A stretch of 64,000 nt of DNA from a virus: positions 32,001-96,000 of the IMG/VR virus record IMGVR_UViG_3300033512_000218, one strand, 5' to 3'. Made by a program: the position numbers and the translations under genes. Below are positions 9,749-41,871 of the stretch, piece after piece; position 1 is the stretch's first letter; the number at the start of each line of letters is the position of its first letter. Below the pieces are notes generated by a model. That model made no database searches. It saw nothing but the letters and a program-made list of their open reading frames with translations, and was not told the origin of the DNA.

Positions 9749-9761
9749 ATTATTAAACATT

Positions 9762-10217
9762 ATGAATAAAATTTCATTATCAACCACAGGAATTATTTCA
9801 TCAATCACTATTAATGATTTATATGCATCAATATTCACTCATCCTTCTATAAATTTAATTTTGGTAGAAGAAAATAGTCATAATTATCCTTATACATTAG
9901 ATGAAATAAAAAATAGTGATGATTTACAAACTGCAATAGATAATGGATACATTGTTTTAAAAGATGAAAATGATATAGAAATACCAATAATTAAACAAGT
10001 GGAGATTGAATTATATAATCCAATTATAAATAATTTTACTAATGCAAAACATAATCATAGTAATGATACAACCGGAGGGGTATTAGAGAATGTTACTGTT
10101 CCGATAAAAACAACATTGGAAAGAATATCTATGATTACACATGTAGGATTAATCGTATATGATTCAAATTATAAAAGTATTTTTTCATTTGATGGTGAAT
10201 CATGGATTGAAAATTAA
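9762..10217 (+). CDS. virion structural protein sharing its N-terminal domain with 12024-15023
   Basis: LSTTGxISSITINDLxAS.F.HP...YPY..D.IKNS.D.QTA..NGYIVL.DEN shared. Confidence 0.7.
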   Translation: MNKISLSTTGIISSITINDLYASIFTHPSINLILVEENSHNYPYTLDEIKNSDDLQTAIDNGYIVLKDENDIEIPIIKQVEIELYNPIINNFTNAKHNHSNDTTGGVLENVTVPIKTTLERISMITHVGLIVYDSNYKSIFSFDGESWIEN

Positions 10218-10226
10218 AATAATAAG

Positions 10227-12008
10227 ATGGCTATAGATAAAGAAATAAAATTTAAAGGGACAAAAGCATATCAATATAATGCAAATGATAATACATGGTA
10301 TATATCAAAGAATATTCGACCGTTATGGTGGTTAAATATAGACGATAATTTGTCAATACAAAATAATTTAACTGTTCCTTTAAATGAATATTATTTTGGA
10401 AATGCTGGCACTGAAATTATACAAATTAAAACTATTATTACAAACAGAATATTAGTTCCAAGTACATCTAACATGACCATAGGAAATCCGAACATTCCTT
10501 GCATATGGCATACATTAGTACTCGGTGATATAATATCAATATCTGTAACAAATGCTGGATTTACTGCAAATTCATCGTATTATGTTACGTCAGTTAATCC
10601 AGGTGTTTCATTTCAATTGTCTTCATCATATACAAATACATCAAGAGTAATAAATCCAACATCTGCAACAATTGGATTGTTTTATAAAAAACAAGGAATT
10701 GCAATTTCCAATGCTTATATTACAGAAGGATATAGATCATTAACATTTGACCATGGAAATCATATTCAAGGCTCTTATCTTAGTGGCACTATACCTAACA
10801 ATAAAATATTAACTCAATGGGGCGTTCATATGTTTATAAAACCTTGGACAACAAACCAACCATTTCCTGTTGGAATTGCTCCAGAAAGAACTATTTTTCA
10901 CATTAAAGATTCTGTAAGTGGAAAATACATTAGAATATTTATTTCTACAACAAATTTAATGTCAGTTGATATTAATGGTAATCTACTTAATTTAGTAAAA
11001 GATTTATTTGCATCCAATTCATCAACAGCTGGATATGTTGTTGCTAAATACGATGGAACAAATTTAACATTACGTTCTTCTTCATTATTTTCAACACATT
11101 TTTCTGAAACATTATCAATTCCTGGATTAACATGGGAATTTAATAGTACAAATACTATTATAAGTATTGGAGCAAAAACAGATGGAACAACTGCATTATC
11201 AAAAATAAATATAGATAGTTTTAGATTTTATGATAGATATTTAACTGATGAAGAAGAAGTTGTTTTATATGGTAAAAACTATGGAAATGTATTTTCATCA
11301 TTTACTTCAACTGCTATGTATATGGATTATTTTAAATGGAGATGTGAAGAAACGAATGATACTCAACCAATGCAACAAACAGGATTTAATGGAACAATAA
11401 CTCCAGATAATGGAACTGTAAATTTAATAAGAAATGCAACAGGAACAGGAGTACTTATTAATCAATTAAATGAAAAAAATATTTGTTATGAATTTAATGA
11501 ATTATATAAAGGTTATTTATCATCTACAATAACTATACCTAATTTAAATGCTAATAGTGCTATAAGTATTGGAATGTGGTTTAAAGATACATCAACAACT
11601 ATTGATAATAGAAGATGGATTACTAATTCAACATTAAATAGCGGAATTGGATTAAAAATATTTAGTTTAGGACAAAGCAGTACAGGACAAAATATAATTC
11701 GTTTTAATAGTAATAATATTGAGAAATTGATTACAACAACCGATTGGAGAAATGTTTGGAATTATTGGACTATCGTTTTTGATTGTTATAAAAATATAGT
11801 TTTTTTATATAAAAACGGAATTTTATTAGATTCAATTACTCCAACAATATATACTCCTGTAGCAGGATTATTTATTGGAGGTAAAAATATTACAACCAAT
11901 ACAGAATATATTAATGGTTATATTAGAGATATTTCTATTAAACAATATCGAGTATCTGTCGGTGAAATGAAATTAACATATAATAACGGACATCCGTTAC
12001 AAACATAA
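10227..12008 (+). CDS. LamG/concanavalin-A-like lectin domain virion protein
   Basis: IDSFRFYDRYLT, ISIGMWFK, WNYWTIVFD..LYKNG and NGYIRDI motifs (two LamG-like domains). Confidence 0.7.
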   Translation: MAIDKEIKFKGTKAYQYNANDNTWYISKNIRPLWWLNIDDNLSIQNNLTVPLNEYYFGNAGTEIIQIKTIITNRILVPSTSNMTIGNPNIPCIWHTLVLGDIISISVTNAGFTANSSYYVTSVNPGVSFQLSSSYTNTSRVINPTSATIGLFYKKQGIAISNAYITEGYRSLTFDHGNHIQGSYLSGTIPNNKILTQWGVHMFIKPWTTNQPFPVGIAPERTIFHIKDSVSGKYIRIFISTTNLMSVDINGNLLNLVKDLFASNSSTAGYVVAKYDGTNLTLRSSSLFSTHFSETLSIPGLTWEFNSTNTIISIGAKTDGTTALSKINIDSFRFYDRYLTDEEEVVLYGKNYGNVFSSFTSTAMYMDYFKWRCEETNDTQPMQQTGFNGTITPDNGTVNLIRNATGTGVLINQLNEKNICYEFNELYKGYLSSTITIPNLNANSAISIGMWFKDTSTTIDNRRWITNSTLNSGIGLKIFSLGQSSTGQNIIRFNSNNIEKLITTTDWRNVWNYWTIVFDCYKNIVFLYKNGILLDSITPTIYTPVAGLFIGGKNITTNTEYINGYIRDISIKQYRVSVGEMKLTYNNGHPLQT

Positions 12009-12023
12009 AAAATAAAAAAATAA

Positions 12024-15023
12024 ATGGCAAATCAAATTAAATTATCAACAACAGGAACAATATCATCAATAACAATTAATGATTTATTTGCTTCTAAGTT
12101 TGTTCATCCTATCATAGATATGATATTGTGCGATATAACAAATCCTGCGGCATATCCATATTCAAACGATGATATTAAAAACAGTATTGATATTCAAACA
12201 GCAGTTACAAATGGCTATATTGTTTTACGAGATGAAAATAATAATATTATTTCTGATGTTACAGAAAGAAATTTTAATATATGGTCACCTGATGTAGATT
12301 CAACATCATCATTAAAAATAACAAAAGCAGATGGAACTACTGAAATATTAACTGTAGACAGTATAAATTCTATTATTAAAACAAATAGCATTGGAAATTT
12401 AGATGGAGTAGTTGTTTTTAATTTGCAAGATAGACAATTTTTTGATTCTGTAAATAAACAATCATTATCAACACAAGATAGAACTTTAAATAATACATCA
12501 GGAATTCCTATTATTCAATGGGGAAGTGGATTAAATGTATTTGATGATAGTGGCAACACATTGTTTTTAATATATCCTGAACACCCCGTTAGCAAAATAT
12601 CCATCAATAGAGAAAATCCTGTTAATTGTTTGGAAGTTGGAATGGAAAGTGATAATGACACTAATTATATTAGTGCTATGTCTTCTTCTGATAAAACTCG
12701 TGGTTTTAGTATTGATGATACAAATGGATATAAATGGGCAAATTATGTATTCAAAGAAGAAGATGGTGATACACAATATTTTGCTTCTGGAAATTCACAA
12801 AGAGATATTTTAGTTATGCAAAGTGATGGAAGAATCGGGATAAATATTCCAACTATAATAAACAATCTTGAAATTGTTAGAATAGTACAAACATCAAGTA
12901 ATACATATGCCACTGTTACAACTGAATTAACTCATAATTTAACAAACTTATCAATTGTTAAAATTATAAATGCTACTAATTCTAAATTTAATGGAACATT
13001 TTCAGTTGGTAATGTTGTTGGATTAACATTTAGAATTAATGGAGTATCAGTTGGTGCAATAACAGAAGAACCTACAAATGCTCAAGTGATTCAAGAAACA
13101 AATATTCCTATTGATTTTACTATAATGCCTCAGTTTTTAGATGCAATATATAGTTTTAATAAATCTTTAGATGTCGGAGTTGGAACAGGATTCATTGATT
13201 TAACTGCAAATATGCGTACATCATTTGGAACTGCTGATGTTATATTGCCTATTGCAACAGGTAGCTATTTATATGTAGGTCAAAAATATACATGGAAATC
13301 GACTTCATTTAATATTACAACTGCAACCGTTGGTTCTACTGCTATTACAGTAGAATATTCAAGTGGAACTAATTCTTGGACAGCTTTAACAACCTCCTCA
13401 ACATCAGGAAATGGATTAGTAGATGGAACAAGTAGATTAACTAAAGACGGAAATATTTCATGGAATCTTTCAACATTCAAATACTTATGGACAAGTAGAG
13501 AAATTATTATCGAAACGACTCCTCGTTCAACTGAAGAATTATATTGGATTAGAATAAGTTTAACAGGAACTATTACTGTTGCACCAACTGCTCAATCAAT
13601 TAGTAATAATGGAGGGAATAGAGTTGGAGTATACGCACAATCAGGAGATATAAATCCATTTTTTAAATTAGATAGTTTAGGTAGAGTAGGATTTTTACCA
13701 CCCGAATTAGAATCTCAATATAGTTTAGGTTCTTTAACTGGTCTTACAACGTCTAAATTTGAAGTTATTGCTGAAGATGGAGCAAGAAGTGATTTTATTT
13801 ATTACTTAGCAAATAGTACATCTGCTTCTCATCCTGCAATTGTATTAGCTAAAAGTGCTGGTACAATAGCTTCTAAAACACCTATAACAAATGGAAGTGA
13901 TATTGGAGCTGTATATGGATTTGGTTATGACGGAACAACTTTTAGAGAAAGCTGTAAAATTTTATTTGAAGCTGATGCTGGACATGGTGCAGGAGTTGTA
14001 TCAGGTAAAATGTCTTTATGGACAACAATAGGAACATCTGCAAACGAAAGAATGACAATAAAAAGCAGTGGTAATATCGGTATTGGAATAACAAGTCCTA
14101 CTGCAACATTACATTTAAAAGCAGGTACTGCAACAGCAAATACATCACCATTAAAATTAACAACAGGAGTTGCTTTAACAAATCCAGAAAATGGTTCATT
14201 AGAATATCATACTTCTCATTTATATTTTACAATTGGAACAACAAGATACCAATTAGACCAACCCACTATATTAGGTACTGTTACTTCGGGCGTTTGGAAT
14301 GGAACTACTATAGCAATTGCAAATGGTGGTACAAATTCTACAACAACCTTAAATAATGGTAGAGTAATGATTAGTGCAGGAGATTCAATTGTAGAGAATT
14401 CCGCATTAACATCATCAGCTTTAGTTTTGGGAGGTATTTCTTTATCTTCATTATCATTGGGAACTGCTAATCAAATAGTAGGAATGAATAATGCTGGTAC
14501 AGGAAATGAATATAAAACATTATCAGTAGGTACAAATGGAACAGATTTTAACATTGTATTAAATTCTGCAAATAGTATTGTTTTAAATTTACCAGATGCT
14601 TCTACTTCTAATAGAGGAGTTGTTACAACAGGAATCCAATCTTTTAGGGGACAAAAAACATTTACTAATTCAGTTATTTTTAATCAAAATATAGTAAATA
14701 ACGGAATTATAACAGTATCCATAACAGCATCTCAAAATAATTATAATCCTGTTGGATTATCAACTTGTAATGTAATAAGAATATCATCAAGTGCATCATA
14801 TAACATAACGGGTTTAACGGCTCAAGAATCTGGTAGAACTATTATGATAATTAATATAGGTACTCAAGCAATAACATTAGTAACTGAAAGTGCTTCATCT
14901 ACAGAATCAAATAGATTTGCATCACCATCAAATCAATTAGGAGCTAAAGAAAATGCTATTTTATGGTATGATATAACTTCAGCAAGATGGCGTGTAATAG
15001 CAAATAGTGTAAGACAATCATAA
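12024..15023 (+). CDS. tail fibre protein
   Basis: ERMTIKSSGNIGIGITSPTATLHL and GVWNGTTIAIANGGT fibre motifs. Confidence 0.75.
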   Translation: MANQIKLSTTGTISSITINDLFASKFVHPIIDMILCDITNPAAYPYSNDDIKNSIDIQTAVTNGYIVLRDENNNIISDVTERNFNIWSPDVDSTSSLKITKADGTTEILTVDSINSIIKTNSIGNLDGVVVFNLQDRQFFDSVNKQSLSTQDRTLNNTSGIPIIQWGSGLNVFDDSGNTLFLIYPEHPVSKISINRENPVNCLEVGMESDNDTNYISAMSSSDKTRGFSIDDTNGYKWANYVFKEEDGDTQYFASGNSQRDILVMQSDGRIGINIPTIINNLEIVRIVQTSSNTYATVTTELTHNLTNLSIVKIINATNSKFNGTFSVGNVVGLTFRINGVSVGAITEEPTNAQVIQETNIPIDFTIMPQFLDAIYSFNKSLDVGVGTGFIDLTANMRTSFGTADVILPIATGSYLYVGQKYTWKSTSFNITTATVGSTAITVEYSSGTNSWTALTTSSTSGNGLVDGTSRLTKDGNISWNLSTFKYLWTSREIIIETTPRSTEELYWIRISLTGTITVAPTAQSISNNGGNRVGVYAQSGDINPFFKLDSLGRVGFLPPELESQYSLGSLTGLTTSKFEVIAEDGARSDFIYYLANSTSASHPAIVLAKSAGTIASKTPITNGSDIGAVYGFGYDGTTFRESCKILFEADAGHGAGVVSGKMSLWTTIGTSANERMTIKSSGNIGIGITSPTATLHLKAGTATANTSPLKLTTGVALTNPENGSLEYHTSHLYFTIGTTRYQLDQPTILGTVTSGVWNGTTIAIANGGTNSTTTLNNGRVMISAGDSIVENSALTSSALVLGGISLSSLSLGTANQIVGMNNAGTGNEYKTLSVGTNGTDFNIVLNSANSIVLNLPDASTSNRGVVTTGIQSFRGQKTFTNSVIFNQNIVNNGIITVSITASQNNYNPVGLSTCNVIRISSSASYNITGLTAQESGRTIMIINIGTQAITLVTESASSTESNRFASPSNQLGAKENAILWYDITSARWRVIANSVRQS

Positions 15024-18465: not shown

Positions 18466-18798
18466 ATGAAAAATAAACTAAAAATTGAAATAAGATTAAT
18501 TTGGTATTTTATTGAATCAATGTATACAAAATTATTAAGACTGTTTCATATTAATAAAGATAAATCAATTATTCCTAAATGAATGTATTGCTATGTAATG
18601 GATGAAGAACTAAATAAACAAAAACCTACTTCAGAAGAGGGATATTATATAAAAACATGCAAATATTATAGAAGTACTCCAAAAACAAAAGGAATAGCAT
18701 GTACATATACAGGTTATTATGGATTTGATTTTGGTCTTTATGACCAATGCAAAATTTGTGGAGAAAATGATGAAATAGATGAAAGAGATTTAATATAA
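18466..18798 (+). pseudogene. Cys-rich protein gene with in-frame TGA at 18580-18582
   Basis: ATG at 18466 is in frame with ORF 18583-18798 across IPK*MYCY. Confidence 0.55.
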
Positions 18799-18814
18799 AT
18801 AAATATATTTAATT

Positions 18815-19024
18815 ATGATAGTTGATATTAAATGCCATAAATGTAAAAAAGAATTTGAAGCAGAATGGAATGTGAGAGGAAAATGTCCTAATTGTGAAAA
18901 CAAATATGATTGGACATGGGATGGTGAGTTGTGGAGTGATTTTGAAACTTGTTTTCCAATATTTGAAAGTGAAACGGAAGGTGTTAAAAACTCTTTTTTA
19001 CTTGTAATAGATTGGGATTTTTAA
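18815..19024 (+). CDS. zinc-ribbon protein
   Basis: CHKC...CPNC. Confidence 0.6.
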   Translation: MIVDIKCHKCKKEFEAEWNVRGKCPNCENKYDWTWDGELWSDFETCFPIFESETEGVKNSFLLVIDWDF

Positions 19025-19026
19025 AT

Positions 19027-19083
19027 TTTAACATTTATTAAGATAATTAAATTTGTATTTTTACTTTATTTATATTATCTTTA
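19027..19083 (+). promoter_or_regulatory. 57-bp early-type promoter upstream of cassette array 1
   Basis: motif copy with a variant -7 box (TATCTTTA). Confidence 0.65.
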
Positions 19084-19210
19084 TAATATAATTTAAAATG
19101 AATATTAACCAACAACTGATATTAGGACAGAAACAATGGCTTATATTTGTTGTAAGCAAATAATCACTAAATTGTATGTTATGTACTTTTATCATAATAC
19201 ATTAATCAAA

Positions 19211-19447
19211 ATGGAAAATATAAAAATGAGTTTTAAAGATGCCCCTGTCGGTGCAAGATTTAAGTATCCAAATGATACAAGCGGAAATATTTGGGTTAAA
19301 ATTAATTCATATCCACAAAGTAGATTTGAAAGCGGATTAGGATTGATTTGTAAATGGGAAGGAAATATAAAAAGTTATCAATCTTTTTGCTCGTTTAGTG
19401 ATGAAAATAATGGAATTTCATTTGAAACTGAAATCGAGTTATTATAG
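19211..19447 (+). CDS. cassette hypothetical protein
   Basis: likely start MENIKMSF; ends just before site A. Confidence 0.6.
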   Translation: MENIKMSFKDAPVGARFKYPNDTSGNIWVKINSYPQSRFESGLGLICKWEGNIKSYQSFCSFSDENNGISFETEIELL

Positions 19448-19451
19448 TTGC

Positions 19452-19578
19452 TAACGGTTGCAAATAAACACAGTAAAAGATATGAAAGAACAAATTTTAG
19501 AAATAGCAGAAAAACTTAGATTAGAACTAATAACTGAATACGAAGCACAAAACCTTTTATTTGGTTTATTTAGTGTTA
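19452..19578. repeat. attC-like site A
   Basis: TAAC..CAAATAAACACAGTAAAAG / CTTTTATTTGGTTTATTTAG..GTTA. Confidence 0.65.
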
Positions 19579-19691
19579 TACAACGAAGTGAACAGTTGGT
19601 TGCTTTTGTAAAATGGTTAGAAGCTAATTCAGACCACTCAATTGATAGAGGTTGGATAGAAGAATATATTGAAGCAACCAATTGTGTATAA
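19482..19691 (+). CDS. cassette hypothetical protein starting inside site A
   Basis: MKEQILEI...LFSVIQRSEQLVAF; stop codon is the TAA of the next TAAC. Confidence 0.6.
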   Translation: MKEQILEIAEKLRLELITEYEAQNLLFGLFSVIQRSEQLVAFVKWLEANSDHSIDRGWIEEYIEATNCV

Positions 19692-19804
19692 CGGCTGAGT
19701 ATTGGCGTTGTTGCCATCATAAACGATTATTAATAACACTAAATTATAAAATTATGACAAAAGTTTCAGAAAACCACGAAGGCAATAACGCTAATACTTT
19801 GTTA
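19689..19804. repeat. attC-like site B
   Basis: arms AGTATTGGCGTTGTTGCC (19698) / GGCAATAACGCTAATACT (19781). Confidence 0.85.
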
Positions 19805-19978
19805 GCCACAGTTATTCCTCAATCAAAAGAAGAGTTGTTAGAATGTATTCAAAATTTGATGGGTGTATTTGACACACCAGTTTCAAGAAGAGCAATAAAG
19901 GGTGAATTTGCCGATGAAGTTCGTAAGATAGGTCGTCAAATTTTGGAAAGTAATGGTAAATCAATGTACGATATATAA
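19754..19978 (+). CDS. cassette hypothetical protein starting inside site B
   Basis: MTKVSENHEGNNANTLLATVIPQ; A-rich leader lies in the hairpin loop. Confidence 0.65.
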   Translation: MTKVSENHEGNNANTLLATVIPQSKEELLECIQNLMGVFDTPVSRRAIKGEFADEVRKIGRQILESNGKSMYDI

Positions 19979-19985
19979 TTGTGGC

Positions 19986-20071
19986 TAACGTATCGTGTAT
20001 GAGCAGTGGCACTTGTACACACTTTCAAATTAGCTACAACGATTATGTGCCATTGCTTATACACGGTGTTA
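19986..20071. repeat. attC-like site C
   Basis: arms CGTGTATGAGCAGTGGCAC / GTGCCATTGCTTATACACG. Confidence 0.85.
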
Positions 20072-20109
20072 GTGACAGTACTTTTTTTAATAATCTAATA
20101 ATCAATTAT

Positions 20110-20664
20110 ATGAAAGCTGAAAAACAAATAATTTACGATGACGAAAATGCAGCCAGATTCGTTGAAAATATCAAAGGTTGGGTTGATATTAATAATCAAT
20201 TTTATGGGAATAATTCAGATTCTGAACATATGGCACGTTGGTCAAGTTGCACACATAAAAAATGTAAATGCGGAAAGCTAATAACTAAAGGATGGACGAA
20301 ATGCGATGAATGTAGAACTAACTCCGAAATTGAAAGATATAACCAACTTACATTTAAAGAATATAATGGTGATATAGTTTATTCACATTATGCTGACCGA
20401 TACTTTATGGATTCTGATGAAATAGAAGATTATTGCTCTGAGGAAGAAATTGAGACTAAAGATTTGAGGCTTGTATTTTGCGAACCAAATAAATTTAGCC
20501 AAATATATAGTGACTATTGGGAAGATGTATTGCAAGAAGATTCAGAAGGCGAATTACCTACGAAGTTACAAGAGGCTTTAGATAATTTAAATAAAATCAT
20601 TTCTGAAATGCCTCCAGCGAGTTATTGCCCAAGTAAAACACGAACTGAATATCGTAGCGTGTAG
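20110..20664 (+). CDS. cassette phage protein with Cys cluster
   Basis: likely start MKAEKQIIYDD; CTHKKCKCG..CDEC. Confidence 0.7.
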   Translation: MKAEKQIIYDDENAARFVENIKGWVDINNQFYGNNSDSEHMARWSSCTHKKCKCGKLITKGWTKCDECRTNSEIERYNQLTFKEYNGDIVYSHYADRYFMDSDEIEDYCSEEEIETKDLRLVFCEPNKFSQIYSDYWEDVLQEDSEGELPTKLQEALDNLNKIISEMPPASYCPSKTRTEYRSV

Positions 20665-20673
20665 TATTGGCAC

Positions 20674-20762
20674 TAACGGTTGGGTGTATGAAACGTAACC
20701 TAACTACAAACTTTAGTATTAACCACTGAACTATAATAGGTTATGTTTTATACACCTTGTTA
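20674..20762. repeat. attC-like site D
   Basis: arms GGTGTATGAAACGTAACCTA / TAGGTTATGTTTTATACACC. Confidence 0.85.
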
Positions 20763-20862
20763 TATGCAGTGCGGACTTATAGTGGAAATGTTGATACGAG
20801 AGATGAACCTTTTTGTTTTATTTTTTGTGCGGTGGGAAAGTAATTAACTTAATAACTAAAAT

Positions 20863-21435
20863 ATGAAATACGAAATAATATACGCTGATCCAGCTTGGGA
20901 ATACAATACAAAGGAATGTTTGGCTAAAACATCAATACTTAATGGAGAATTGAATACCCATTATAGCACAATGACATTGAAAGACTTAAAAGCATTAGAC
21001 GTGCAAAGTATTTCAAATAAAAATTGTATGCTGTTTTTGTGGGTTGTAAGCCCGATGTTAAAAGAAGGTATTGAAGTGATGGAAGCGTGGGGCTTTAAAT
21101 ATGCCACAATAGCTTTTATATGGCACAAGCAAAGAACAAACCCTGGACATTATACAATGAGTGAATGTGAAATTTGCTTGGTAGGGAAGCGTGGCACAAT
21201 ACCAACTCCAAGAGGAGCAAGGAATGTAAGGCAATTTTTATCTGAAATGCGAGGCAAACATTCTGCTAAACCTAATGAAATAAGAACGAGAATTGATACA
21301 ATGTTTCCAACTCAAAATAAAGTAGAATTATTTGCAAGGCAGAATGTTTTAGGATGGGATGCTTGGGGTAACGAATGCGAAAACTCTATAACTATTGGAG
21401 GGGAGGAAAAAAAAATTAAAACAAATTGCGTATAA
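20863..21435 (+). CDS. MT-A70 family N6-adenine methyltransferase (cassette)
   Basis: IYADPAW, LFLWV, WGFKY, HSAKP, ELFAR..GWDAWGNE. Confidence 0.9.
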   Translation: MKYEIIYADPAWEYNTKECLAKTSILNGELNTHYSTMTLKDLKALDVQSISNKNCMLFLWVVSPMLKEGIEVMEAWGFKYATIAFIWHKQRTNPGHYTMSECEICLVGKRGTIPTPRGARNVRQFLSEMRGKHSAKPNEIRTRIDTMFPTQNKVELFARQNVLGWDAWGNECENSITIGGEEKKIKTNCV

Positions 21436-21497
21436 CGAATGGTGCTATGAGCAGGTTTGTGTTGCGCCTGCGGCAAACTTGCTTATAGCACGTGTTA
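21433..21497. repeat. attC-like site E
   Basis: arms GTGCTATGAGCAGGTTTG / CAAACTTGCTTATAGCAC. Confidence 0.85.
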
Positions 21498-21568
21498 CTG
21501 GCTGGCTCGGTTAATTAACCACTAAACTCAAATCGAAGCATTAAACAAAAGAATTTAAAAAAAGAGGG

Positions 21569-22330
21569 ATGGAAAAAAATAAAATATATAACGAAAATTG
21601 CCTTGAAACAATGGCTAAAATGCCTGATAAGTTTGTGGACTTAACGGTTACTTCACCGCCTTATAATATGCGAACACGTATAAGAAACGGACAATATACC
21701 ACAAGAGAGAAAAGCGAACATTTTAGCAAAAAGTATAAGTATTTTGACGATGCTTTACCAATAAATGATTTTTACGAATTTCATAGCAGCGTATTGACTG
21801 AACTATTGAGAGTATCAAAAATTGTTTGCTACAACTTTCAAATAGTGACAGGAAGCAAAGAAGCGTTTTTTAAAATCATTGGCGACTTTAACAAGGATAT
21901 TAAGGATATTATCATTTGGGATAAAGGAAGCGGACAGCCTGCAATGCACGGAATGGTTTTAAATAGCTGCTATGAAATGGTATTGATATTAGAAGATGAT
22001 AAAAGAGCAGGGAGAGCAATACAAAATGCTAAATTCAAAAGAGGTGAAATGAATAACATTTTGAGAATCGGCAGAGGCAAAAAAGTATCTGATGTTCACG
22101 GTGCAATTTTTCCAGAACAACTACCATTTGATTTGATAAACGCTTTTTCAGAAAAAGAAGCATTGATTTACGACCCTTTTATGGGAAGTGGAACTACTGG
22201 ATTAGTAGCAAGTAAATTAGGTAGAAACTATATTGGAAGTGAAATAACAGAAGAATATTGTCAAATAGCTGAAAATCGTATTAAAGAGTGCGGTGGGCTT
22301 TTTTTGAACTCTTTTGAACCGAAATGTTAA
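21569..22330 (+). CDS. N4-C/N6-A DNA methyltransferase, beta class (cassette)
   Basis: TSPPY, HGAIFP, YDPFMGSGTT. Confidence 0.9.
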   Translation: MEKNKIYNENCLETMAKMPDKFVDLTVTSPPYNMRTRIRNGQYTTREKSEHFSKKYKYFDDALPINDFYEFHSSVLTELLRVSKIVCYNFQIVTGSKEAFFKIIGDFNKDIKDIIIWDKGSGQPAMHGMVLNSCYEMVLILEDDKRAGRAIQNAKFKRGEMNNILRIGRGKKVSDVHGAIFPEQLPFDLINAFSEKEALIYDPFMGSGTTGLVASKLGRNYIGSEITEEYCQIAENRIKECGGLFLNSFEPKC

Positions 22331-22358
22331 ATCGCAGCACAAATGTAGAGCTTGCCAG

Positions 22359-22447
22359 TAACGTTGGTGCTATGAGCAGGTTTGCCTTGCAGAAATGTTC
22401 AAATTTAGCACTAATGTTATTGGCAAACTTGCTTATAGCACGTGTTA
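22359..22447. repeat. attC-like site F
   Basis: arms identical to site E, different loop. Confidence 0.85.
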
Positions 22448-22483
22448 TGTGCCGTTTTTATTCACGAATTTAAAATTAGTAAG

Positions 22484-22996
22484 ATGAAAAAATATGATGT
22501 AATTTATGCCGACCCTGCTTGGCGATATGACTTTAGCAAAAGTAATAGCAGGGAAATTGAAAACCAATACCCAACAATGACCATAGATGAAATATGTGGA
22601 TTAAAAGTACCTGCAAAAGATAACGCTGTGCTTTATATGTGGGCAACTGCACCAAAGCTATTGGAAGCAATAAAAGTATTAAATGCGTGGGGCTTTGAAT
22701 ATAAAACACAAGCAGTTTGGGATAAGGAAATTATCGGAATGGGTTATTGGTTCAGAGGACAACACGAAATATTAATAGTTGCTACAAAGGGTAAATTTTC
22801 ACCACCCGAACAACCATTAAGAATAAGTAGTGTGATTAAGGAAAGGAGAACCAAGCATAGCAAGAAACCGATTTATGTAAGAGATATGATTGAAAAATGG
22901 TTTCCCGATTCTGAACGATTAGAAATGTTTGCCCGAACAAGCGGTGAAAATTGGGATGTTTGGGGAAATGAAGTTGAGAGTAGTGTCGCTCTTTAA
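22484..22996 (+). CDS. MT-A70 family methyltransferase (cassette)
   Basis: IYADPAW, WGFEYKT, HSKKP, EMFAR; likely ATG at 22484. Confidence 0.9.
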   Translation: MKKYDVIYADPAWRYDFSKSNSREIENQYPTMTIDEICGLKVPAKDNAVLYMWATAPKLLEAIKVLNAWGFEYKTQAVWDKEIIGMGYWFRGQHEILIVATKGKFSPPEQPLRISSVIKERRTKHSKKPIYVRDMIEKWFPDSERLEMFARTSGENWDVWGNEVESSVAL

Positions 22997-23005
22997 AATG
23001 GCACA

Positions 23006-23093
23006 TAACGGTTGCGTGTATATTTCAGGTTTGCTTGTACGAACTTTGAATTATGCACAAATGCTGATGCAAACTTGAATATACACGTTGTTA
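23006..23093. repeat. attC-like site G
   Basis: arms CGTGTATATTTCAGGTTTGC / GCAAACTTGAATATACACG. Confidence 0.85.
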
Positions 23094-23167
23094 GTAACAG
23101 TAGCATACGACAATGTTAATTTGAAACGCTACACTTTTTATTTTAAATTTTTAAGGAGGGATTTTTT

Positions 23168-24148
23168 ATGAATATTTTGAGTTTATTTGATGGTATAAGT
23201 TGTGGGCAAATAGCGTTGGAACGTGCTAATATTAAAGTTGATAAATATTACGCAAGTGAAATTGATGCCAATGCTATTAAAGTTACGAAACACAACTACC
23301 CAAATACAATACATATTGGAAGTGTGAATGATATTGATTTTAGTAAATACCAAGATATTGATATTTTAATTGGTGGTAGCCCCTGCCAAGACTTATCACG
23401 TTGTAATTTAGAAAATAAGGGATTAGAAGGAGAACGATCTAAATTATTTTTTAAATACATAGAATCGTTAAAAATTACTAAGCCTAAATATTATGTATTT
23501 GAAAATGTTGGAAGTATGACCAATGAGAATATGGAAACCATAAGTGAATATTTCGGACATAAACCAATTTGTATAAACTCAAATTTAGTTTCTCCACAAA
23601 GCAGAGAAAGATATTATTGGACAAATATACCAAACGTAATACCACCAATAGATAAAAACATTTTGGTTAAGAATATAATTGAAAAAACCGTACCCGAAAA
23701 GTATTACTTAAAAATGGATTATGCTTATGTACCAAAGGAAACAAAACATAATTCAAAAAGCGGATTACAATTTGTTTGTGGTATTATTAGCAAAAAGAAA
23801 TGGCTTGATGATGGGAAAGGAAATTCACGTAATTTTTCACAAGGAAATAGAGTTTATTCGATAAATGGAAAATCTTGTACTATAAATGCAAATGCTGGAG
23901 GATTAGGTGGTAAAAGTGGATTATATTATTTAGAAGATGGAAAGGAATTTAGCAAAAGCAATATAAGAAGATTAACACCATTAGAAACAGAACGATTACA
24001 AACAATACCTGACAACTATACCGATATAATAAACGAAACAAATAGGTACAAATGTATTGGCAATGGTTGGACGGTAGATGTAATTGCACATATTCTTTCT
24101 TTTATAAATGGTTTTGAAAAAACCACAGATCGTGGGCAAAAAATTTAA
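23168..24148 (+). CDS. C5-cytosine DNA methyltransferase (cassette)
   Basis: LSLFDGI, GGSPCQDLS, FENV, QSRERYY, RRLTPLETERLQ, IGNGW. Confidence 0.93.
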   Translation: MNILSLFDGISCGQIALERANIKVDKYYASEIDANAIKVTKHNYPNTIHIGSVNDIDFSKYQDIDILIGGSPCQDLSRCNLENKGLEGERSKLFFKYIESLKITKPKYYVFENVGSMTNENMETISEYFGHKPICINSNLVSPQSRERYYWTNIPNVIPPIDKNILVKNIIEKTVPEKYYLKMDYAYVPKETKHNSKSGLQFVCGIISKKKWLDDGKGNSRNFSQGNRVYSINGKSCTINANAGGLGGKSGLYYLEDGKEFSKSNIRRLTPLETERLQTIPDNYTDIINETNRYKCIGNGWTVDVIAHILSFINGFEKTTDRGQKI

Positions 24149-24199
24149 AATAAAAAATTATTATGCACGAACCTTGCTACGAAGAAAGGCTATTGTTAC

Positions 24200-24302
24200 T
24201 AACTATTATATATAAACAAGTGTATTTAATTTATTGATTATGAATACAAAAGACAAAACAAATCTTGAAATTTTCGAAGATATTTCTTGAGTTGAAAATT
24301 AT
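24200..24302. other. attI-like terminal site plus putative integrase 5' remnant
   Basis: TAACTATTATATATAAA..TTATTGATTATG then MNTKDKTNLEIFEDIS*VENY; ~100 bp shared with 42846-42950. Confidence 0.6.
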
Positions 24303-24306
24303 AAAT

Positions 24307-24363
24307 TTTAACATTTATTAACACAAATTAATTTTGATTTAGTTAATAAATGTTTTATCTTTG
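24307..24363 (+). promoter_or_regulatory. 57-bp early-type promoter
   Basis: motif copy. Confidence 0.8.
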
Positions 24364-24388
24364 TGATATAATTTAAAAAATTAAACAA

Positions 24389-24820
24389 ATGAAACATTTT
24401 ATTACATCATTAAGAGCAACCTCAAAAGAAGAAACATTAAATCGTTTTAAAGAAACAAATGATTATAATGAAAATAAAGTATATTCTGCTAATCTCAATT
24501 GGTATACACAGGATTGGGATATATACGAATATGATTTAAAAGAAGGTGATTATATTGCATTTGAATATGAATATGAAATAGGTGACCCTGAAATAATAGT
24601 TGATAATATTTCATTTGTATATGAAGATAGAGTAATCGTACACTTTTTATATGGTTATAAATCTGAAACTTGTACTATTTTAAAAAAAGATATTTTAGCA
24701 ATAGGAAATAAACTAAATGGAACAACAAAATTATTAGGTTGGACTGGCTTATTTGATATTGTAAATGAAACAGATTTTTTAATTAAAAATATAGAATATG
24801 AAACAAAATCTAATAGTTAA
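24389..24820 (+). CDS. hypothetical protein
   Basis: ORF after promoter. Confidence 0.65.
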   Translation: MKHFITSLRATSKEETLNRFKETNDYNENKVYSANLNWYTQDWDIYEYDLKEGDYIAFEYEYEIGDPEIIVDNISFVYEDRVIVHFLYGYKSETCTILKKDILAIGNKLNGTTKLLGWTGLFDIVNETDFLIKNIEYETKSNS

Positions 24821-25010
24821 AAAAGGACAAATAATTAAAACCGAGAGAAATGAAATTTTCAAAGTTAAATTGGAAAATGATAATATTATTACCTGTACAA
24901 TATCAGGTAAAATGAGATTAAATAAAATTCATTTAATTGAAGGTGATTTCGTAACGGTTGAATTATCTCCTTATGATATGACACGAGGTAGAATTAGTTG
25001 GAAAGGATAA
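24798..25010 (+). CDS. infA: translation initiation factor IF-1
   Basis: FKVKLEND..ISGKMRLNKIHLIEGDFVTVELSPYDMTRGRI. Confidence 0.93.
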   Translation: MKQNLIVKKGQIIKTERNEIFKVKLENDNIITCTISGKMRLNKIHLIEGDFVTVELSPYDMTRGRISWKG

Positions 25011-25399: not shown

Positions 25400-25882
25400 T
25401 AGCAGTTTGCAATATGAAACGGTTGCATTATAAAACGTTTCAATTTTAGTAATAGCTTGACAGCAACAGTTTTATATTGCTTGTTAGGTATAATAATTTT
25501 TATTATGGGAATGTACACACAATTTATTATCGAATGCAAGTTAAAAGAAGAAACTCCTTACAAAATTATCGAATGTTTAGAAGATATGATAAACGACATT
25601 GATAATGATTTATTTACTTATAATCGAAATCCTTTAAACAATTATTGTGAAAGCAATAAATATTTTAAATCATTTAAAGATTTAGTGTTAAAAGCACATG
25701 GGGATATAAAAAACTATCAGACTGATATTGATAGGTTTACTGATTTTATAAAACCTTATGTGGAAATAGGGTTTTTAGAAAATAATTCTTTTGCTAAATC
25801 ATTATACGAAGGATATGATGAGTGGACGTATTATTGTACCTAACTATTATATATAAAAATCTCAACCTAAGTTATTGACTAT
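25400..25882. mobile_element. integron-like array 2 (attC-like hairpin, one gene, attI-like end)
   Basis: arms GCAATATGAAACGGTTGC / GCAACAGTTTTATATTGC; ends GTTAGGTATAATAA / TTATTGTACCTAAC; then TATTATATATAAA..TTATTGACTAT. Confidence 0.75.
25505..25843 (+). CDS. cassette hypothetical protein
   Basis: likely start MGMYTQF; stop codon is the TAA of TAAC. Confidence 0.7.
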   Translation: MGMYTQFIIECKLKEETPYKIIECLEDMINDIDNDLFTYNRNPLNNYCESNKYFKSFKDLVLKAHGDIKNYQTDIDRFTDFIKPYVEIGFLENNSFAKSLYEGYDEWTYYCT

Positions 25883-25897
25883 ATTTAAAATTATATT

Positions 25898-25954
25898 TTT
25901 AACATTTATTAACATAATTAAATTTGTATTTTTGATTTATTTAATCTATCTTTG
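25898..25954 (+). promoter_or_regulatory. 57-bp early-type promoter
   Basis: motif copy. Confidence 0.8.
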
Positions 25955-25978
25955 TAATATAATTTAAAAAATAATAAA

Positions 25979-31011: not shown

Positions 31012-32184
31012 TTATTGTATTTGTAAAGGTTGCCAATTTTGGTCTTCAGTATAATCCCAATCAACTGTACAATGTCTATGTGATTTAATATAATCATTTA
31101 TTTCAGTTGGAATTAGTCTTGCACTTCTTTTACAAAGTATTTTTTTTAAGTTGGGTAAATTCCAAATAGGTTTAAAACTTGTAGCCATTGTAAACGTTAT
31201 ATCTAAATATTCTAATTTTTTTAAATTTTTTAATGGAGTTAAATCAGATACAGCAGTATTTCGTACATTAAGTTTTTTTAAATTAATTAATTGAGATAAA
31301 GGTTCTAATGTTTTTAAATTAAAATGTTCTCCGTTTATATATGTTAAGTTTATAATTTTACTTAAATCATTTTGAGTTGGATTTCCTTGAATATTTATAT
31401 GTTTTTTAAATATTGATTTCCAATCCTGATTTAAATTATTCCACCAAACAACTAATTGGTTATTATTATTGTTTTCTATTGGTTTATCATTATTTTCTTT
31501 ATTTGATAAATATTTTTCTACAACATCATATATTATTTTTTTTAAATCATGTATATTTATTTCATTTACTGATTTAGGTATTATTTTATCTTTATTATCT
31601 TCTAACCATTTAATTAAAATAGGATAATCACTTTTAGTATATGTGTATTTATCAATAATATTATTATCTATTAAATCATTTGCTAATTGTTTATTATCAT
31701 TGATTATTTCGTTATAATATTCATCATCCTCTTTTTTTAATGATGATAAATAATCACTTACTATATTTATAGCTGTTTCATTATTTTTTGTATTAAATAA
31801 AATATTATAATCTGTATACATTAAATCTTTTTGTGTACTTTTATTATCAGATATTTCAATTATATCATAAATCATTTTAGGAATAACTATATATGATTTA
31901 TCTTTAAATATTAATGTGTATATTTTATTTTCATTTAATTTTTTGATATACATATCATAATCAGTATCCTTTAGTTTATTGGTATATTTAGTATTTTCGG
32001 CTTTAGTCATTATTTTTTTATCCACAATTAAATTACTGTTAATAATTTCTTTTAACGACATAATATATCCATCTATATCAAATTCTTTTTTTAATAAATT
32101 TTCTATTCTTACTTTATTTTTACCATCTATATTATCCATATTTAAATGATTATTTTCATTTAATATACTAACATTATTTTTCAT
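31012..32184 (-). CDS. protein with C-terminal leucine-rich repeats
   Basis: LEPLSQLINLKKLNV..VSDLTPLKNLKKLEYLDI; GTATTTAT upstream. Confidence 0.75.
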   Translation of the reverse strand: MKNNVSILNENNHLNMDNIDGKNKVRIENLLKKEFDIDGYIMSLKEIINSNLIVDKKIMTKAENTKYTNKLKDTDYDMYIKKLNENKIYTLIFKDKSYIVIPKMIYDIIEISDNKSTQKDLMYTDYNILFNTKNNETAINIVSDYLSSLKKEDDEYYNEIINDNKQLANDLIDNNIIDKYTYTKSDYPILIKWLEDNKDKIIPKSVNEINIHDLKKIIYDVVEKYLSNKENNDKPIENNNNNQLVVWWNNLNQDWKSIFKKHINIQGNPTQNDLSKIINLTYINGEHFNLKTLEPLSQLINLKKLNVRNTAVSDLTPLKNLKKLEYLDITFTMATSFKPIWNLPNLKKILCKRSARLIPTEINDYIKSHRHCTVDWDYTEDQNWQPLQIQ

Positions 32185-32226
32185 ATATATTTTGTTTGAT
32201 TATTATTTTTATATAAATACTTAAAA

Positions 32227-34617
32227 TTAATAAATAAATTCATCACTAATTGTAAGTGGTAAATTAGAATATACATAAGTTGTACAATCATTTCTTAATG
32301 TTCTATTTCTTCCTACTGCTTGTATTAAATCTGATTCAATTAAACTTAATTGTAATTCTCTTAATTCATCGTGTTCAAAAGCATTAAACTTAAATTTCAT
32401 TCCTTTCCATTCAATTAATCTATAACTAATATTTGAATTAATATCTACATTTGATAAATCTATTCCTAAAGCATTTGCATATAAAGAATATACATAATTA
32501 GGTTTATGATTCGTACCTATTACTGTAATATCTTTTCCGTTTAATTCATCATAACCTAAACAATTTCCTAAATGAATATCATTTACTGAAGTATCAAAAT
32601 CTTTTTTATTATCTTTAAAAGTAATAACAGGATTGTTATTTATTTGTGATTTAATTTCAGTAATATATTTATAATTATTTAATCCATATCTGGAACAAGA
32701 ATTTTGTGTATATTGGATTATATTGCCTACTGTTTCAACATTATTTAAATCATATACATATACATCATCTTTAAATAAATATTTGTATAATGGAATTAAA
32801 GCAGTTGAACTTAGTATGATTGTTTTTCTTCCTTCTTTAATTTTAAAGTTATCTAAATTTAATGTTATATAATGAATTATATTTTTATCAGTTGAATCAA
32901 TATAATAAGAATGAGAATGTATTAATTTAAGTAAATCTCCAATATGTTCATTTTTAACTTCATCTAAAAAGTTACTATATTGTTTAGTAAACATAGGATT
33001 TACTTTAATTGGTTTATTATATTTTACTCGTTGTTCTGTTGTATATTCCCATAGTAAAGAATTTAATCTTTTTTGTTCTATTGCATTAAAATCTTTTAAC
33101 CATCTAATATCAAATGAATTTATTTCAAATATATAAGAAATAGGGTCTTCATCAAATATTACTGTATTAAACATATGATTTGTATGAATAGCTTTTTGAT
33201 GAGTAGTAAACATTGATAAATGAGTAAATAATTTTAATCTTCCATTTGAATCCAAATATTCTTTAGCTTTCATTCGTTCATTCATATCTAATTTATCATT
33301 ACTTAATATACGGGTTAGATATAGAATAGCTTCTTGATATAAGTGTTTATTATATAACTCTTTTATATCAATATTATATTTATTATTTTCAAATGTAGGT
33401 AATTTAAGTGTTTTATCTTTTAATTTATTAGGATTTTTTACTGTACATCTATCAAAAACTTCATCTTTCAATTTATGTGTTGGAAATGAATATAAAAAGT
33501 TTCCTTTTAAATCTATTTCACATTCAGTTTTACCAAGTCCTGTTGGACTTGTTATTATATGAATACCTGGTTTACCTTTTTTAATAACTTGATTTAATGT
33601 TTCTTTTAGTTTAATTTCTGCTGTTTCTAAACTCATTTTTATTGGTTTTTCAGTTAATATATCTACTCTTCCCTTTTTCCAATTGGAATCAATGTTTAAT
33701 AAATCATTATATTTCCAATCTTCTTTATATGGACTAAAATATTTTAATTGTATTGGATTATATTTATACTTTTTAATAATATTGAATAAAGCGAAATTAT
33801 TCAGTGTATAATTAGTTTTACCTATACTATTATAATACAACATAGTATCTCTAATTAATTTATTTCCTCCTTTTATATAACTTGTATTTGTTATTAATCC
33901 TATTAAAATATCTTGACTTTTTAAATCTCCTTTTAAAAATTCATCTAATACTTGAATTTTTGAACTTGATTCAGTGAAATTATAATTTTGGATTAGTTTT
34001 GTTTTATTATTTAATGTATGTTTATTATTATTGTTATAAAAATTTAACATGTAATTTTCATTAATATTATTGAAATTAGATGTTAAATATCGGAATGTAT
34101 TTTTTTTCTTACTTCCTATTCTACATAAATTACTTGTATATGTTAAATATTCTAAATCTGTTAAATTTTCATTAATATATAAACAATCATTATATAATTT
34201 ATCAATATTATTAATTGGTACAATTGAAGATGCATTGAATAATAATGATATGTTTTTATATATAAAATTACGATGTTTAATATTATTAATTGATTTATCC
34301 AATACAAATATAATACTAAATGTTTTATCACTACTTAATATTAAATTAGGGGATAAATTATTATGTTTTAATATATTTAAAACATTTTCGGCGGAATAAT
34401 CCGAAATAAATTCAAATGATAGTAATTGTTGAGATAACCACTTTGTGGTTAATGTAATATTGCTTTTAAAAATTGAAGTTGAAATAATATTTCTATTATC
34501 TATTAAATGATGTTTTAATTCTTGAATATTATTTAAAACAGATACTTCAGTTGGAAGTTTTTTTAATATCTTCTTGGATAGTTGTTTATTATTTAAATAT
34601 GTGGTAAATTGTATCAT
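32227..34617 (-). CDS. primase-like / SF2 helicase (origin-binding-type) replication protein
   Basis: Walker A SPTGLGKT, Walker B VIFDED, motif VI QAVGRNR; N-terminal domain assignment is weak. Confidence 0.65.
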   Translation of the reverse strand: MIQFTTYLNNKQLSKKILKKLPTEVSVLNNIQELKHHLIDNRNIISTSIFKSNITLTTKWLSQQLLSFEFISDYSAENVLNILKHNNLSPNLILSSDKTFSIIFVLDKSINNIKHRNFIYKNISLLFNASSIVPINNIDKLYNDCLYINENLTDLEYLTYTSNLCRIGSKKKNTFRYLTSNFNNINENYMLNFYNNNNKHTLNNKTKLIQNYNFTESSSKIQVLDEFLKGDLKSQDILIGLITNTSYIKGGNKLIRDTMLYYNSIGKTNYTLNNFALFNIIKKYKYNPIQLKYFSPYKEDWKYNDLLNIDSNWKKGRVDILTEKPIKMSLETAEIKLKETLNQVIKKGKPGIHIITSPTGLGKTECEIDLKGNFLYSFPTHKLKDEVFDRCTVKNPNKLKDKTLKLPTFENNKYNIDIKELYNKHLYQEAILYLTRILSNDKLDMNERMKAKEYLDSNGRLKLFTHLSMFTTHQKAIHTNHMFNTVIFDEDPISYIFEINSFDIRWLKDFNAIEQKRLNSLLWEYTTEQRVKYNKPIKVNPMFTKQYSNFLDEVKNEHIGDLLKLIHSHSYYIDSTDKNIIHYITLNLDNFKIKEGRKTIILSSTALIPLYKYLFKDDVYVYDLNNVETVGNIIQYTQNSCSRYGLNNYKYITEIKSQINNNPVITFKDNKKDFDTSVNDIHLGNCLGYDELNGKDITVIGTNHKPNYVYSLYANALGIDLSNVDINSNISYRLIEWKGMKFKFNAFEHDELRELQLSLIESDLIQAVGRNRTLRNDCTTYVYSNLPLTISDEFIY

Positions 34618-41660: not shown

Positions 41661-41676
41661 GAATAATAGAAAAATA

Positions 41677-41733
41677 TTTAACATTTATTAACACAAATTA
41701 ATTTGTATTTATGAAATAAATGTTTTATCTTTG
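41677..41733 (+). promoter_or_regulatory. 57-bp early-type promoter upstream of array 3
   Basis: motif copy. Confidence 0.8.
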
Positions 41734-41871
41734 TGATATTATTAACAATTAAAAAAATAAACAAAATAGAAAATCCACAAATTATTGAATCAAATGGTAA
41801 ATTTAATACAATTAAAAAACTTCATAAATTTGAAACATAAAATTTAATTAACAGATAAAACTTAATAAAAG

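Follow-up and report, generated by a model that had tools for sequence, protein, structure and literature searches.

A phage-borne array of one-gene cassettes with coding-strand hairpins suggests an integron-like gene-capture system with a Xer-like recombinase in Bacteroidota phages

We describe an array of seven one-gene units in viral DNA and propose that it belongs to an integron-like gene-capture system. The array occupies positions 19452–24203 of a stretch of 64,000 nucleotides (nt), namely bases 32001–96000 of a 139,610-bp (139.6-kb) virus record (IMGVR_UViG_3300033512_000218); this whole stretch is called the window below, and coordinates are window positions unless stated otherwise. 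Every gene in the array lies on the plus strand, with hairpin sites between the genes. Each unit begins with a hairpin framed by TAAC and GTTA, and its last 14 nt are complementary to a segment just past its own hairpin. We put the probability at about 0.75 that these units make up a cassette array and belong to an integron-like system, spread widely among Bacteroidota phages, that employs a Xer-like enzyme and has the coding strand as the folding strand. A first-pass annotation, made from the sequence alone, had suggested one-gene mobile cassettes of a non-canonical integron-like system; varied cassette orders, similarity boundaries at TAAC and a recombinase linked to related arrays support that suggestion, and from these we infer recombination.

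We scanned both strands of the whole genome for hairpins whose two inverse arms, separated by a loop, are framed by TAAC plus a short spacer on one side and by GTTA on the other, counting G.T as a pair. This identified six strong sites, all on the plus strand and all within the array: 19689–19804, 19986–20071, 20674–20762, 21433–21497, 22359–22447 and 23006–23093 (hairpins B to G). Their measured layout is TAAC, 2–4 nt, an arm of 16–23 pairs, a loop, the inverse arm, 0–1 nt and GTTA. The few other matches in the genome are weak, with 15–17 pairs and spans of 150–245 nt. Folded as single-stranded DNA, the plus strands of the six sites reach z-scores of −3.3 to −4.6 against shuffled sequences (−3.3 for B, −4.2 for C and −4.6 for the short-loop hairpin E), and at every site the plus strand folds better than the minus strand. 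Seven sites of one layout had been listed in the first-pass annotation. Six have it; the seventh, hairpin A (19452–19578), has the TAAC...GTTA frame and homologues, but it folds no better than shuffled sequence. The hairpins come in three size classes, of ~50, ~88 and ~125 nt. Hairpin A is a weak member of the long (~125 nt) class, which is present in other phages, and is homologous to positions 3554–3679 of a related locus (L088) and to a lake-metagenome contig that matches 19461–19580 only. Hairpin B is 79.5% identical to a site in the huge phage LR756500.1, with the similarity ending at the edges of TAAC and GTTAG.

An alignment of 57 non-redundant 88-nt sites contains 24 consensus pairs, 19 of them with compensatory changes, in agreement with the earlier remark that the arms differ between sites yet stay paired. 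Paired cells make up 96.5% of the alignment, compared with 69.5% after column shuffles and 31–50% when partners are slid. Since the sites had been selected for pairing, this covariation means that the arms vary with pairing kept, and is no independent proof of structure. Two G.T wobbles, at alignment columns 5/92 (the base of the hairpin) and 23/78, are each kept in 54 of the 57 sites. The 19-bp hairpin stem has no bulged bases, and there is an asymmetric internal loop of 5 nt versus 1 nt. It is from the conserved G.T pairs that the strand bias stems, with the coding strand as the better folder. The loops share a motif, approximately ACTTTCAAATTAGCAC (alignment A2, loop columns ~38–56), despite the differing arms.

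From the 57-site alignment, which consists mainly of sites from other phages, we built a covariance model whose E-values are rough. In the 64-kb window it matches array sites only. On the plus strand it scores 49–82 bits at five sites (76.8 bits for hairpin C, 81.6 for D and 48.6 for E) and 25.8 bits (E 0.037) at 19696–19799 within site B; the minus strand of the window sites scores 22–27 bits. Three matches, at 25400–25486, 21433–21497 and 19696–19799, lie outside the training set. The structure of the sites is therefore independently supported, since the model matches array sites on which it had not been trained.

The second constant element is the pairing of cassette ends. In all units of the window, the 16 nt starting at each GTTA pair with the 16 nt ending at the next TAAC; the complementary 12–16-mers described in the first-pass annotation are all present in the sequence. 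Counted over 14 positions, units 1 to 7 have 10, 14, 13, 12, 13, 14 and 14 pairs, always with a G.T at position 11. The last of these stems is formed by the cassette 7 end segment GGCTATTGTTACTAAC (24188–24203), which pairs with 23090–23105; no hairpin follows this terminal segment, whose TAAC is 24200–24203. Across 121 loci, 37% of 300 neighbouring site pairs have at least 10 of 12 end pairs, compared with 2.9% of random combinations and 3% when the two flanks of the same hairpin are combined. Because the left and right flanks of one hairpin pair at chance level, we detect no empty or self sites. Among 93 unique cassettes the end stem is 14 bp long, positions 5–10 and 12–14 covary through all four Watson–Crick types, and position 11 is G in the 5′ segment and T in the 3′ segment in 93 of 93. 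The end stems are thus a defined structure and not a relic.

The units so delimited each carry one gene. Cassette 1 (19452–19691, headed by hairpin A) and cassette 2 (19689–19988, hairpin B) have small open reading frames (ORFs) that begin inside the hairpin loops: a 69-amino-acid ORF (19482–19691) reads across the 3′ arm of A, and a 74-amino-acid ORF (19754–19978) reads across the 3′ arm of B and its GTTA. Cassette 3 (19986–20676, hairpin C) carries a 184-amino-acid ORF (20110–20664) with a weak DUF7952 match under the Pfam cut-off. The remaining cargo consists of four DNA methyltransferases of three classes: an MT-A70 family enzyme (20863–21435; PF05063, E 2e-23) in cassette 4 (20674–21435, hairpin D), an N6/N4 methyltransferase (21569–22330; PF01555, E 6e-33) in cassette 5 (21433–22361, hairpin E), a second MT-A70 enzyme (22484–22996; PF05063, E 7e-23) in cassette 6 (22359–23008, hairpin F) and a C5 cytosine methyltransferase (23168–24148; PF00145, E 2e-42) in cassette 7 (23006–24203, hairpin G). 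These four enzymes probably block host restriction enzymes, and a cargo of four orphan methyltransferases and small genes fits a shuffled stock of anti-restriction functions. In the related loci, the longest ORF is on the site strand in 286 of 300 cassettes. The G+C fraction of the array is 0.32–0.36 and that of the backbone 0.16–0.25, which bears out an earlier impression, gained by eye, that the cassette genes are richer in GC.

The hairpin family is not confined to this virus. A strict pattern derived from one hairpin type found it in at least 119 IMG/VR viral contigs and in 75 stretches of GTDB species genomes, mostly of Bacteroidota (Flavobacteriaceae, Saprospiraceae, Bacteroidales and other groups) and many of them short contigs of metagenome-assembled genomes. 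The largest arrays have 18 sites in 13 kb. Both the huge phage LR756500.1 and Polaribacter phage P12002L bear such arrays. Pattern matches and homologues of the recombinase described below also occur in assemblies labelled Patescibacteria (Parcubacteria, Gracilibacteria, Saccharibacteria; loci L128, L159 and L167 are among them), some on contigs of more than 0.3 Mb; these may be mis-binned phage DNA or may reflect a wider host range.

Comparison of the loci indicates where the units are joined. In an all-versus-all comparison, the T of TAAC is the exact left end of similarity in 212 of 867 cases, and ~61% of left ends are at most 12 nt away from it, whereas only ~2% of positions are that near any core landmark. 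Right similarity ends at GTTA are rare. This left-end asymmetry arose despite a collection of loci that was symmetric about the hairpin, which argues that the hairpin travels with the downstream gene. One shared cassette (L029 1258–1629 and L062 2384–2753), 94% identical from ATAAC to CACATAAC, is internal in L029, where a hairpin comes next, and terminal in L062, where a non-hairpin end comes next. Two blocks stand in opposite order in L012 and L106. We found no clean insertion or deletion of one cassette between near-identical loci.

Sequencing runs, searched as Logan contigs, yielded the same boundaries; the joints given here belong to other organisms with related hairpins. Cassette 7 (23006–24203) is matched over its exact length, with 30 differences, by a 2119-nt contig from a lake metagenome; beyond the cassette, contig and window are unlike on either side. 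Other metagenome contigs match hairpins only, with ends at 19986, 21433 and 19804; those at hairpin C match 19986–20070 only. Contigs of two runs match as far as 23009, the last letter of TAAC, and then diverge, and in one run the contigs past 23009 enter ATAAATATAGAC..., which resembles the end site of locus L123. The complete array is absent from every run; about a tenth of it is present in 20 runs from 15 studies.

A tyrosine recombinase accompanies many of the related arrays. Of 96 array-bearing viral records, 29 contain a PF00589 match (18 of 50 and 11 of 46), with E-values of 1e-23 to 1e-45 in 28 of the 29 and open frames of ~265–300 amino acids in nearly all. For 25 of the 29, no more than ~8 kb separate gene and array; 24 of these 25 genes share the strand of the cassettes and lie downstream of them. 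At six loci its start codon is 35–65 nt past a terminal TAAC or CAAC. We also chose four loci by recombinase protein search alone, which avoids ascertainment by the hairpin pattern; that search gave 7661 matches at E < 1e-20, and these homologues carry only the names 'XerD' or 'integrase'. In all four loci, the covariance model matches upstream of the recombinase gene only and on its strand only, the terminal TAAC is 30–36 nt before the ATG, and the context is that of a phage, with rows of small genes or methyltransferases upstream. The first-pass annotation had named invariant gene order in relatives, boundaries away from the TAAC/GTTA cores and the lack of any linked recombinase as grounds for abandoning its idea. 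We instead find other orders and contexts, similarity boundaries on TAAC, and a tyrosine recombinase linked to arrays in many phages.

These observations bear on a reading in which the hairpins regulate or process mRNA, and modules are shuffled by homologous recombination between conserved hairpins with no dedicated recombinase. It would account for wobbles that are G.U on the transcribed strand, for hairpins that lie in 5′ untranslated regions and in some cases enclose a start codon, for their conservation of 80–100% between unrelated phages, which amounts to 60–120 nt of homology, and for the many arrays that lack a recombinase. Such shuffling predicts breakpoints throughout the hairpins, however, whereas those seen are on the first letter of TAAC, even beside an unrelated hairpin or no hairpin. 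Nor would it explain why each gene is spanned by an end stem of 14 bp in which one G.T is invariant, or why the recombinase starts 30–65 nt past the last TAAC in ten loci, and the hairpins and leaders of the window's array carry no promoter box. We consider this explanation very unlikely, although the hairpins may have a second role at the RNA level.

The linked enzymes are closest to the archaeal XerA type (206 bits to NF040815, for which the cut-off is 220; E 3e-44 to PDB 4A8E). They fall below the cut-offs of the integron-integrase models TIGR02249 and NF011946, which match them in two pieces. VchIntIA is also matched in two pieces: within its residues 180–247, ~43 residues are absent from the linked enzymes, which have ~25 residues where IntI has ~68, and the missing stretch is the region of the IntI-specific domain. 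Xer-family enzymes act on dif-type sites with two inverted arms of ~11 bp and a central region of 6–8 bp; we identified no double-stranded dif-like site for the Xer-like enzyme. End sites of a second type occur at two loci (L053 and L049), where TAAC, 5–6 G-rich letters and then GTTAGA(T/C)(G/A)TCAC stand just before the recombinase ATG. Here TAAC and GTTA form an inverted pair in double-stranded DNA with a short spacer between them, as in the core site of a classical tyrosine recombinase.

The units could alternatively be ordinary integron cassettes from a host integron, serviced by host IntI, as in clusters of attC sites lacking an integrase (CALINs). Qi, Rajabal, Ghaly, Tetu and Gillings (2023) described 17 phage clusters of attC sites, one of them in P12002L with two methyltransferases, and read the P12002L sites as divergent classical attC sites of bacterial integrons (PMC9892861). 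That array belongs to the same element family as the one described here: its attC1 is a member of the short type, and it has end complementarity, methyltransferase cargo and a hairpin-less end. The AAC...GTT cores and the cassette logic are indeed like those of attC sites, HattCI called two sites in the P12002L array, and IntI1 acted in E. coli on one of these, attC2, recombining it at G|TTAGGC; this site spans the array end with its terminal core and had been called on the opposite strand (PMC9892861). However, attC1, the site that truly belongs to this hairpin family, did not recombine with IntI1 (PMC9892861). Moreover, the array-linked enzyme is Xer-like and is missing the IntI-specific segment, the hairpins have conserved G.T pairs and no extrahelical bases, and the hairpin precedes its gene and folds better on the coding strand. 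Service by a host IntI is therefore highly improbable in our view. We find at least five sites of the family in the P12002L array (L002, minus strand, 32700 to 29240), compared with the two detected in the paper. Some cores in that array are CAAC/GTTG, one loop holds the whole 50-amino-acid gene gp41, and another holds the start of gp37.

Several arrays with the Xer-like enzyme share an end site that is also present in the window. After the terminal TAAC at 24200–24203, an attI-like terminal site on the plus strand (24204–24239; TATTATATATAAAC...TTATTGATT) aligns with the stretch between terminal TAAC and recombinase ATG in L202 (first 14 nt identical), L203, L204, L201 and L075. The shared layout is TAAC, N3, TATATATAA, ~11 nt, TAAyTnATTGATT and ATG. 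In related loci this conserved non-hairpin sequence lies after the last TAAC and before the recombinase ATG; the window has the sequence but not the gene. In place of the gene, a 16-codon ORF on the plus strand (24240–24290; MNTKDK...) begins with an ATG at +36. The same terminal sequence recurs at 25841 and 42846, at the ends of two further plus-strand loci, so that all three arrays share it. The second locus (25400–25844) is a solo cassette whose hairpin (25400–25486) scores 54.4 bits (E 3e-7) with the covariance model; its first core is mutated to TAGC, and it ends at TAAC 25841–25844 and the shared motif. The third (~41873–42849), delimited by reading of the sequence, is a two-unit array with a unit at ~41873–42163, then a hairpin (42160–42295) and a gene, ending at TAAC 42846–42849, the terminal motif and a short MNTK... 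ORF of ~28 codons at 42884. Both end in a TAAC|TATTATATATAAA... site. Recombinases of related loci start MNDK, MNKK or MNNK. With a hidden Markov model of the recombinase N terminus, the ORFs at 24240 and 42884 were outside the top 15 of 1149 ORFs, and a tblastn search of the genome for recombinase remnants returned low-complexity noise only. The idea of a decayed integrase thus draws on position, the MNxK start and the DNA alignment.

These ends raise the question of whether the window arrays are immobile fossils, fixed as ordinary genes after loss of the recombinase. A search of the 139.6-kb genome found no tyrosine recombinase (no PF00589 match at E up to 1), the expected recombinase start is occupied by the 16-codon ORF, hairpin A folds no better than chance, and the first core of the solo cassette is mutated. 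On the other hand, six hairpins and seven end stems are intact and every invariant G.T is kept. Cassette 7 is present at ~97.5% identity in a different lake-metagenome context, and single units occur in the 20 runs from 15 studies mentioned above, both of which point to recent exchange. Further, the genome is only ~60% complete, and an enzyme could act in trans. We therefore regard fossil arrays as unlikely. The window phage would have lost its recombinase, or never had one in these 139.6 kb, and exchange would then need an enzyme supplied in trans by a co-infecting phage or the host. With seven sites and no recombinase in the record, the window arrays resemble CALINs.

On the observed anatomy, covariation, breakpoints, recombinase linkage and cargo we base a model in which catalysis, strand, cut position and circular intermediate are all predicted. 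The mobile unit, read along the coding strand, would start with the C of TAAC and continue through the hairpin and GTTA to 10 nt specific to that unit; the gene would come next, then 10 nt complementary to the specific segment, and finally TAA. In an excised circle, both end segments would flank the hairpin and lengthen it. The folded circle site would then have two arms around the asymmetric internal loop (5 nt versus 1 nt): a 14-bp outer arm, made of TAAC/GTTA and the unit-specific segments, and the 19-bp hairpin stem. Each arm would present a nearly invariant G.T ~10 bp from the loop, with the T on the strand running 5′ to 3′ towards the loop. Such a two-fold symmetric arrangement, as deduced from the sequences, would match the geometry expected for a tyrosine-recombinase dimer on two half-sites. 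The Xer-like recombinase (~270 amino acids) would most likely cut the folded coding strand at TAA|C or just past TAACG, and units would be exchanged between hairpins, or between a hairpin and the attI-like end site, much as IntI does on the bottom strands of attC sites, and XerCD on the CTX phage genome in its folded form. A phage promoter at the array's far end would drive the promoterless genes. Seen from the recombinase gene, the arrangement is that of a classical integron viewed along its bottom strand: the strand that folds is also the sense strand of the recombinase, cutting would take place at the 5′ foot of the hairpin, and the non-hairpin site would lie between array and enzyme.

Several points weigh against an integron-like system served by a Xer-like enzyme. 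Besides the missing recombinase in this genome, complete phages such as P12002L and several records of 280–430 kb have arrays and no recombinase, and the enzyme is therefore not always in cis. We saw no recombination product, circle or excision joint in the run data, which consist of contigs only. In one pair of cassettes similarity is limited to the GTTA...TAAC body, and the hairpins to either side differ, which implies exchange on the GTTA side too, or replacement of hairpins. Since TAACG is invariant, the breakpoints fit either of the two cut positions. Wobbles on the coding strand would also fit a structure at the mRNA level. Finally, the loci were collected with a pattern from one hairpin type, and the scan favours paired sites and accepts G.T pairs, so that the pairing statistics are inflated; results that depend on position or direction are not affected.

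The transcriptional layout of the region is consistent with promoterless cassettes. An 87-nt AT-rich direct repeat (family D1) lies ahead of the array on the plus strand (19012–19098), with further copies at 24292–24378, ~25890–25960 and ~41670–41745; every cassette locus of the genome has a copy at its head. The repeat carries the Bacteroidota-type −7 box TAnnTTTG (TAAATTTG at 19048; TATCTTTG at 24356) and probably represents a phage promoter family that defines transcription units. No TAnnTTTG box is present in the array hairpins or leaders (plus strand, 19452–24203), the sole box there being internal to a coding sequence, at 21628. The other boxes in 18901–24400 are within the flanking promoter-like repeats or at 19142 and 19321, before the first hairpin. 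With a box at the head of the array and none in hairpins or leaders, the cassettes appear to be promoterless and to be read towards the end site. The first ORF after the repeat (19136–19447, plus strand, 103 amino acids) is not a complete cassette, since it has no matching segment at its 5′ end; a Pfam scan of it was empty, and neither it nor the 69-, 74- and 184-amino-acid ORFs of cassettes 1 to 3 has a significant family match.

The virus itself is a single IMG/VR entry with a completeness estimate of 60%. Its designation as a phage is based on the IMG/VR classification, a match to Cellulophaga phage phi46:3 and the phage context of related arrays. A blastn search of the region against GenBank phages returned cassette genes and one hairpin only, and a search with the upstream backbone protein found no near relatives; the same locus in a sister phage was thus not available for comparison. 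A PHROGs scan of eight ORFs (six of the largest in the window and two flanking the array) identified a DNA ligase and a kinase-like domain only. The window has very large ORFs at 2699–15023 and 31012–34617 (2349, 999, 796 and 593 amino acids); those of 999, 796 and 593 amino acids had no PHROG match. The virus is AT-rich (~20% GC). An Rfam scan of 18500–25000 gave just two chance microRNA matches, far under threshold; Rfam has no attC family. Beyond the window, at genome positions 103815–104201 and ~48 kb from the array, is a resolvase-domain serine recombinase. We rejected it as the cassette enzyme, as it is unlinked to arrays here or elsewhere. It is followed, within genome positions 103731–105484, by a large ORF that has a second copy at 136228–136947, and the pair of serine recombinase and TnpB-like gene resembles an IS607-type element.

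Integrons are the textbook bacterial gene-capture device and are defined by the IntI integrase. If our interpretation is right, integron logic also runs in phages, with a different recombinase clade and flipped cargo, which bears on the origin of integrons from Xer-like enzymes. Phages would thereby have a means of building up and rearranging sets of orphan methyltransferases to counter host restriction, and thousands of proteins annotated merely as 'XerD' would turn out to be the recombinases of such arrays. The site, small and defined and with invariant G.T wobbles, would offer a directly testable model for strand-selective recombination. We lean towards a broader view in which this is a second kind of integron: very abundant and phage-borne, with a Xer-type enzyme that lacks the IntI domain and would recognise coding-strand hairpins by two symmetric G.T wobbles, and through which Bacteroidota phages, and possibly their hosts, trade anti-restriction methyltransferases and small accessory genes, with integrase-less arrays serviced in trans.

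The arrays can be compared with several known systems. IS200/IS605 elements combine a TnpA transposase with subterminal hairpins; we found no Y1 HUH transposase (PF01797) in the genome and noticed none beside related arrays. The PeSL (promoter–stem-loop) cassettes of T4-type phages, reportedly described by Arbiol, Comeau and Krisch in 2010, are said to be moved by homologous recombination. Like them, the units described here are small accessory genes in plastic phage regions flanked by repeated stem-loops; unlike those promoter-bearing units, they have no promoter box in the hairpin, break at specific sites and occur with a linked recombinase. XerCD integrates the folded single-stranded CTX phage genome at chromosomal dif with host enzymes. 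There, too, a Xer-family recombinase works on a one-strand hairpin that mimics a two-arm core site, but a whole phage genome is inserted and there are no cassette arrays. The pdif modules of Acinetobacter plasmids, genes flanked by XerC/XerD sites, are likewise discrete modules bounded by sites of Xer-type recombinases; their sites are 28-bp double-stranded dif-like sites in alternating orientation (PMC7399989), and hairpins, end complementarity or a dedicated recombinase are not known from them.

The first-pass annotation had called integrons an unusual finding in a Bacteroidota phage. This holds in part, as phage attC clusters with methyltransferases, including one in a Polaribacter phage, had been published (PMC9892861). 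That account says nothing of a Xer-like recombinase linked to the arrays, of genes in flipped orientation, of 14-bp end stems or of the breadth of the family; on the first three of these, our full-text literature searches also turned up no paper. What has been published so far is fragments of the system only (PMC9892861).

The closest comparison is with integrons themselves. In both systems one-gene, mostly promoterless cassettes stand in a co-oriented row, and the sites are folded imperfect palindromes with AAC...GTT cores of which one strand folds better. The sites described here, 65–127 nt long with invariant or nearly invariant TAAC/GTTA, lie within the 57–141 nt of attC palindromes, although the letters outside these cores do not conform to the RYYY/RRRY consensus. 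In both, the cassette ends become complementary in the circle, where the start of a cassette pairs with its own site, and a non-hairpin end site lies beside a tyrosine recombinase gene whose sense strand is the folding strand. The differences are equally clear. The recombinase here is Xer-like and lacks the IntI-specific domain segment, and no IntI-type integrase with the additional domain is found beside the array. In integrons the outer arm follows a consensus of 7 bp; here it has 14 bp and is specific to the unit. Extrahelical bases and an unpaired central spacer mark the integron bottom strand, whereas the present sites, with no bulged bases in the stem, owe their asymmetry to G.T wobbles and an internal loop. 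The genes here are on the folding strand with the hairpin 5′ of them, so that the cargo is flipped relative to classical integrons, in which attC is downstream of the ORF; the promoter is at the array end far from the attI-like site, whereas the integron Pc is at the attI end; and the system described here is carried by phages.

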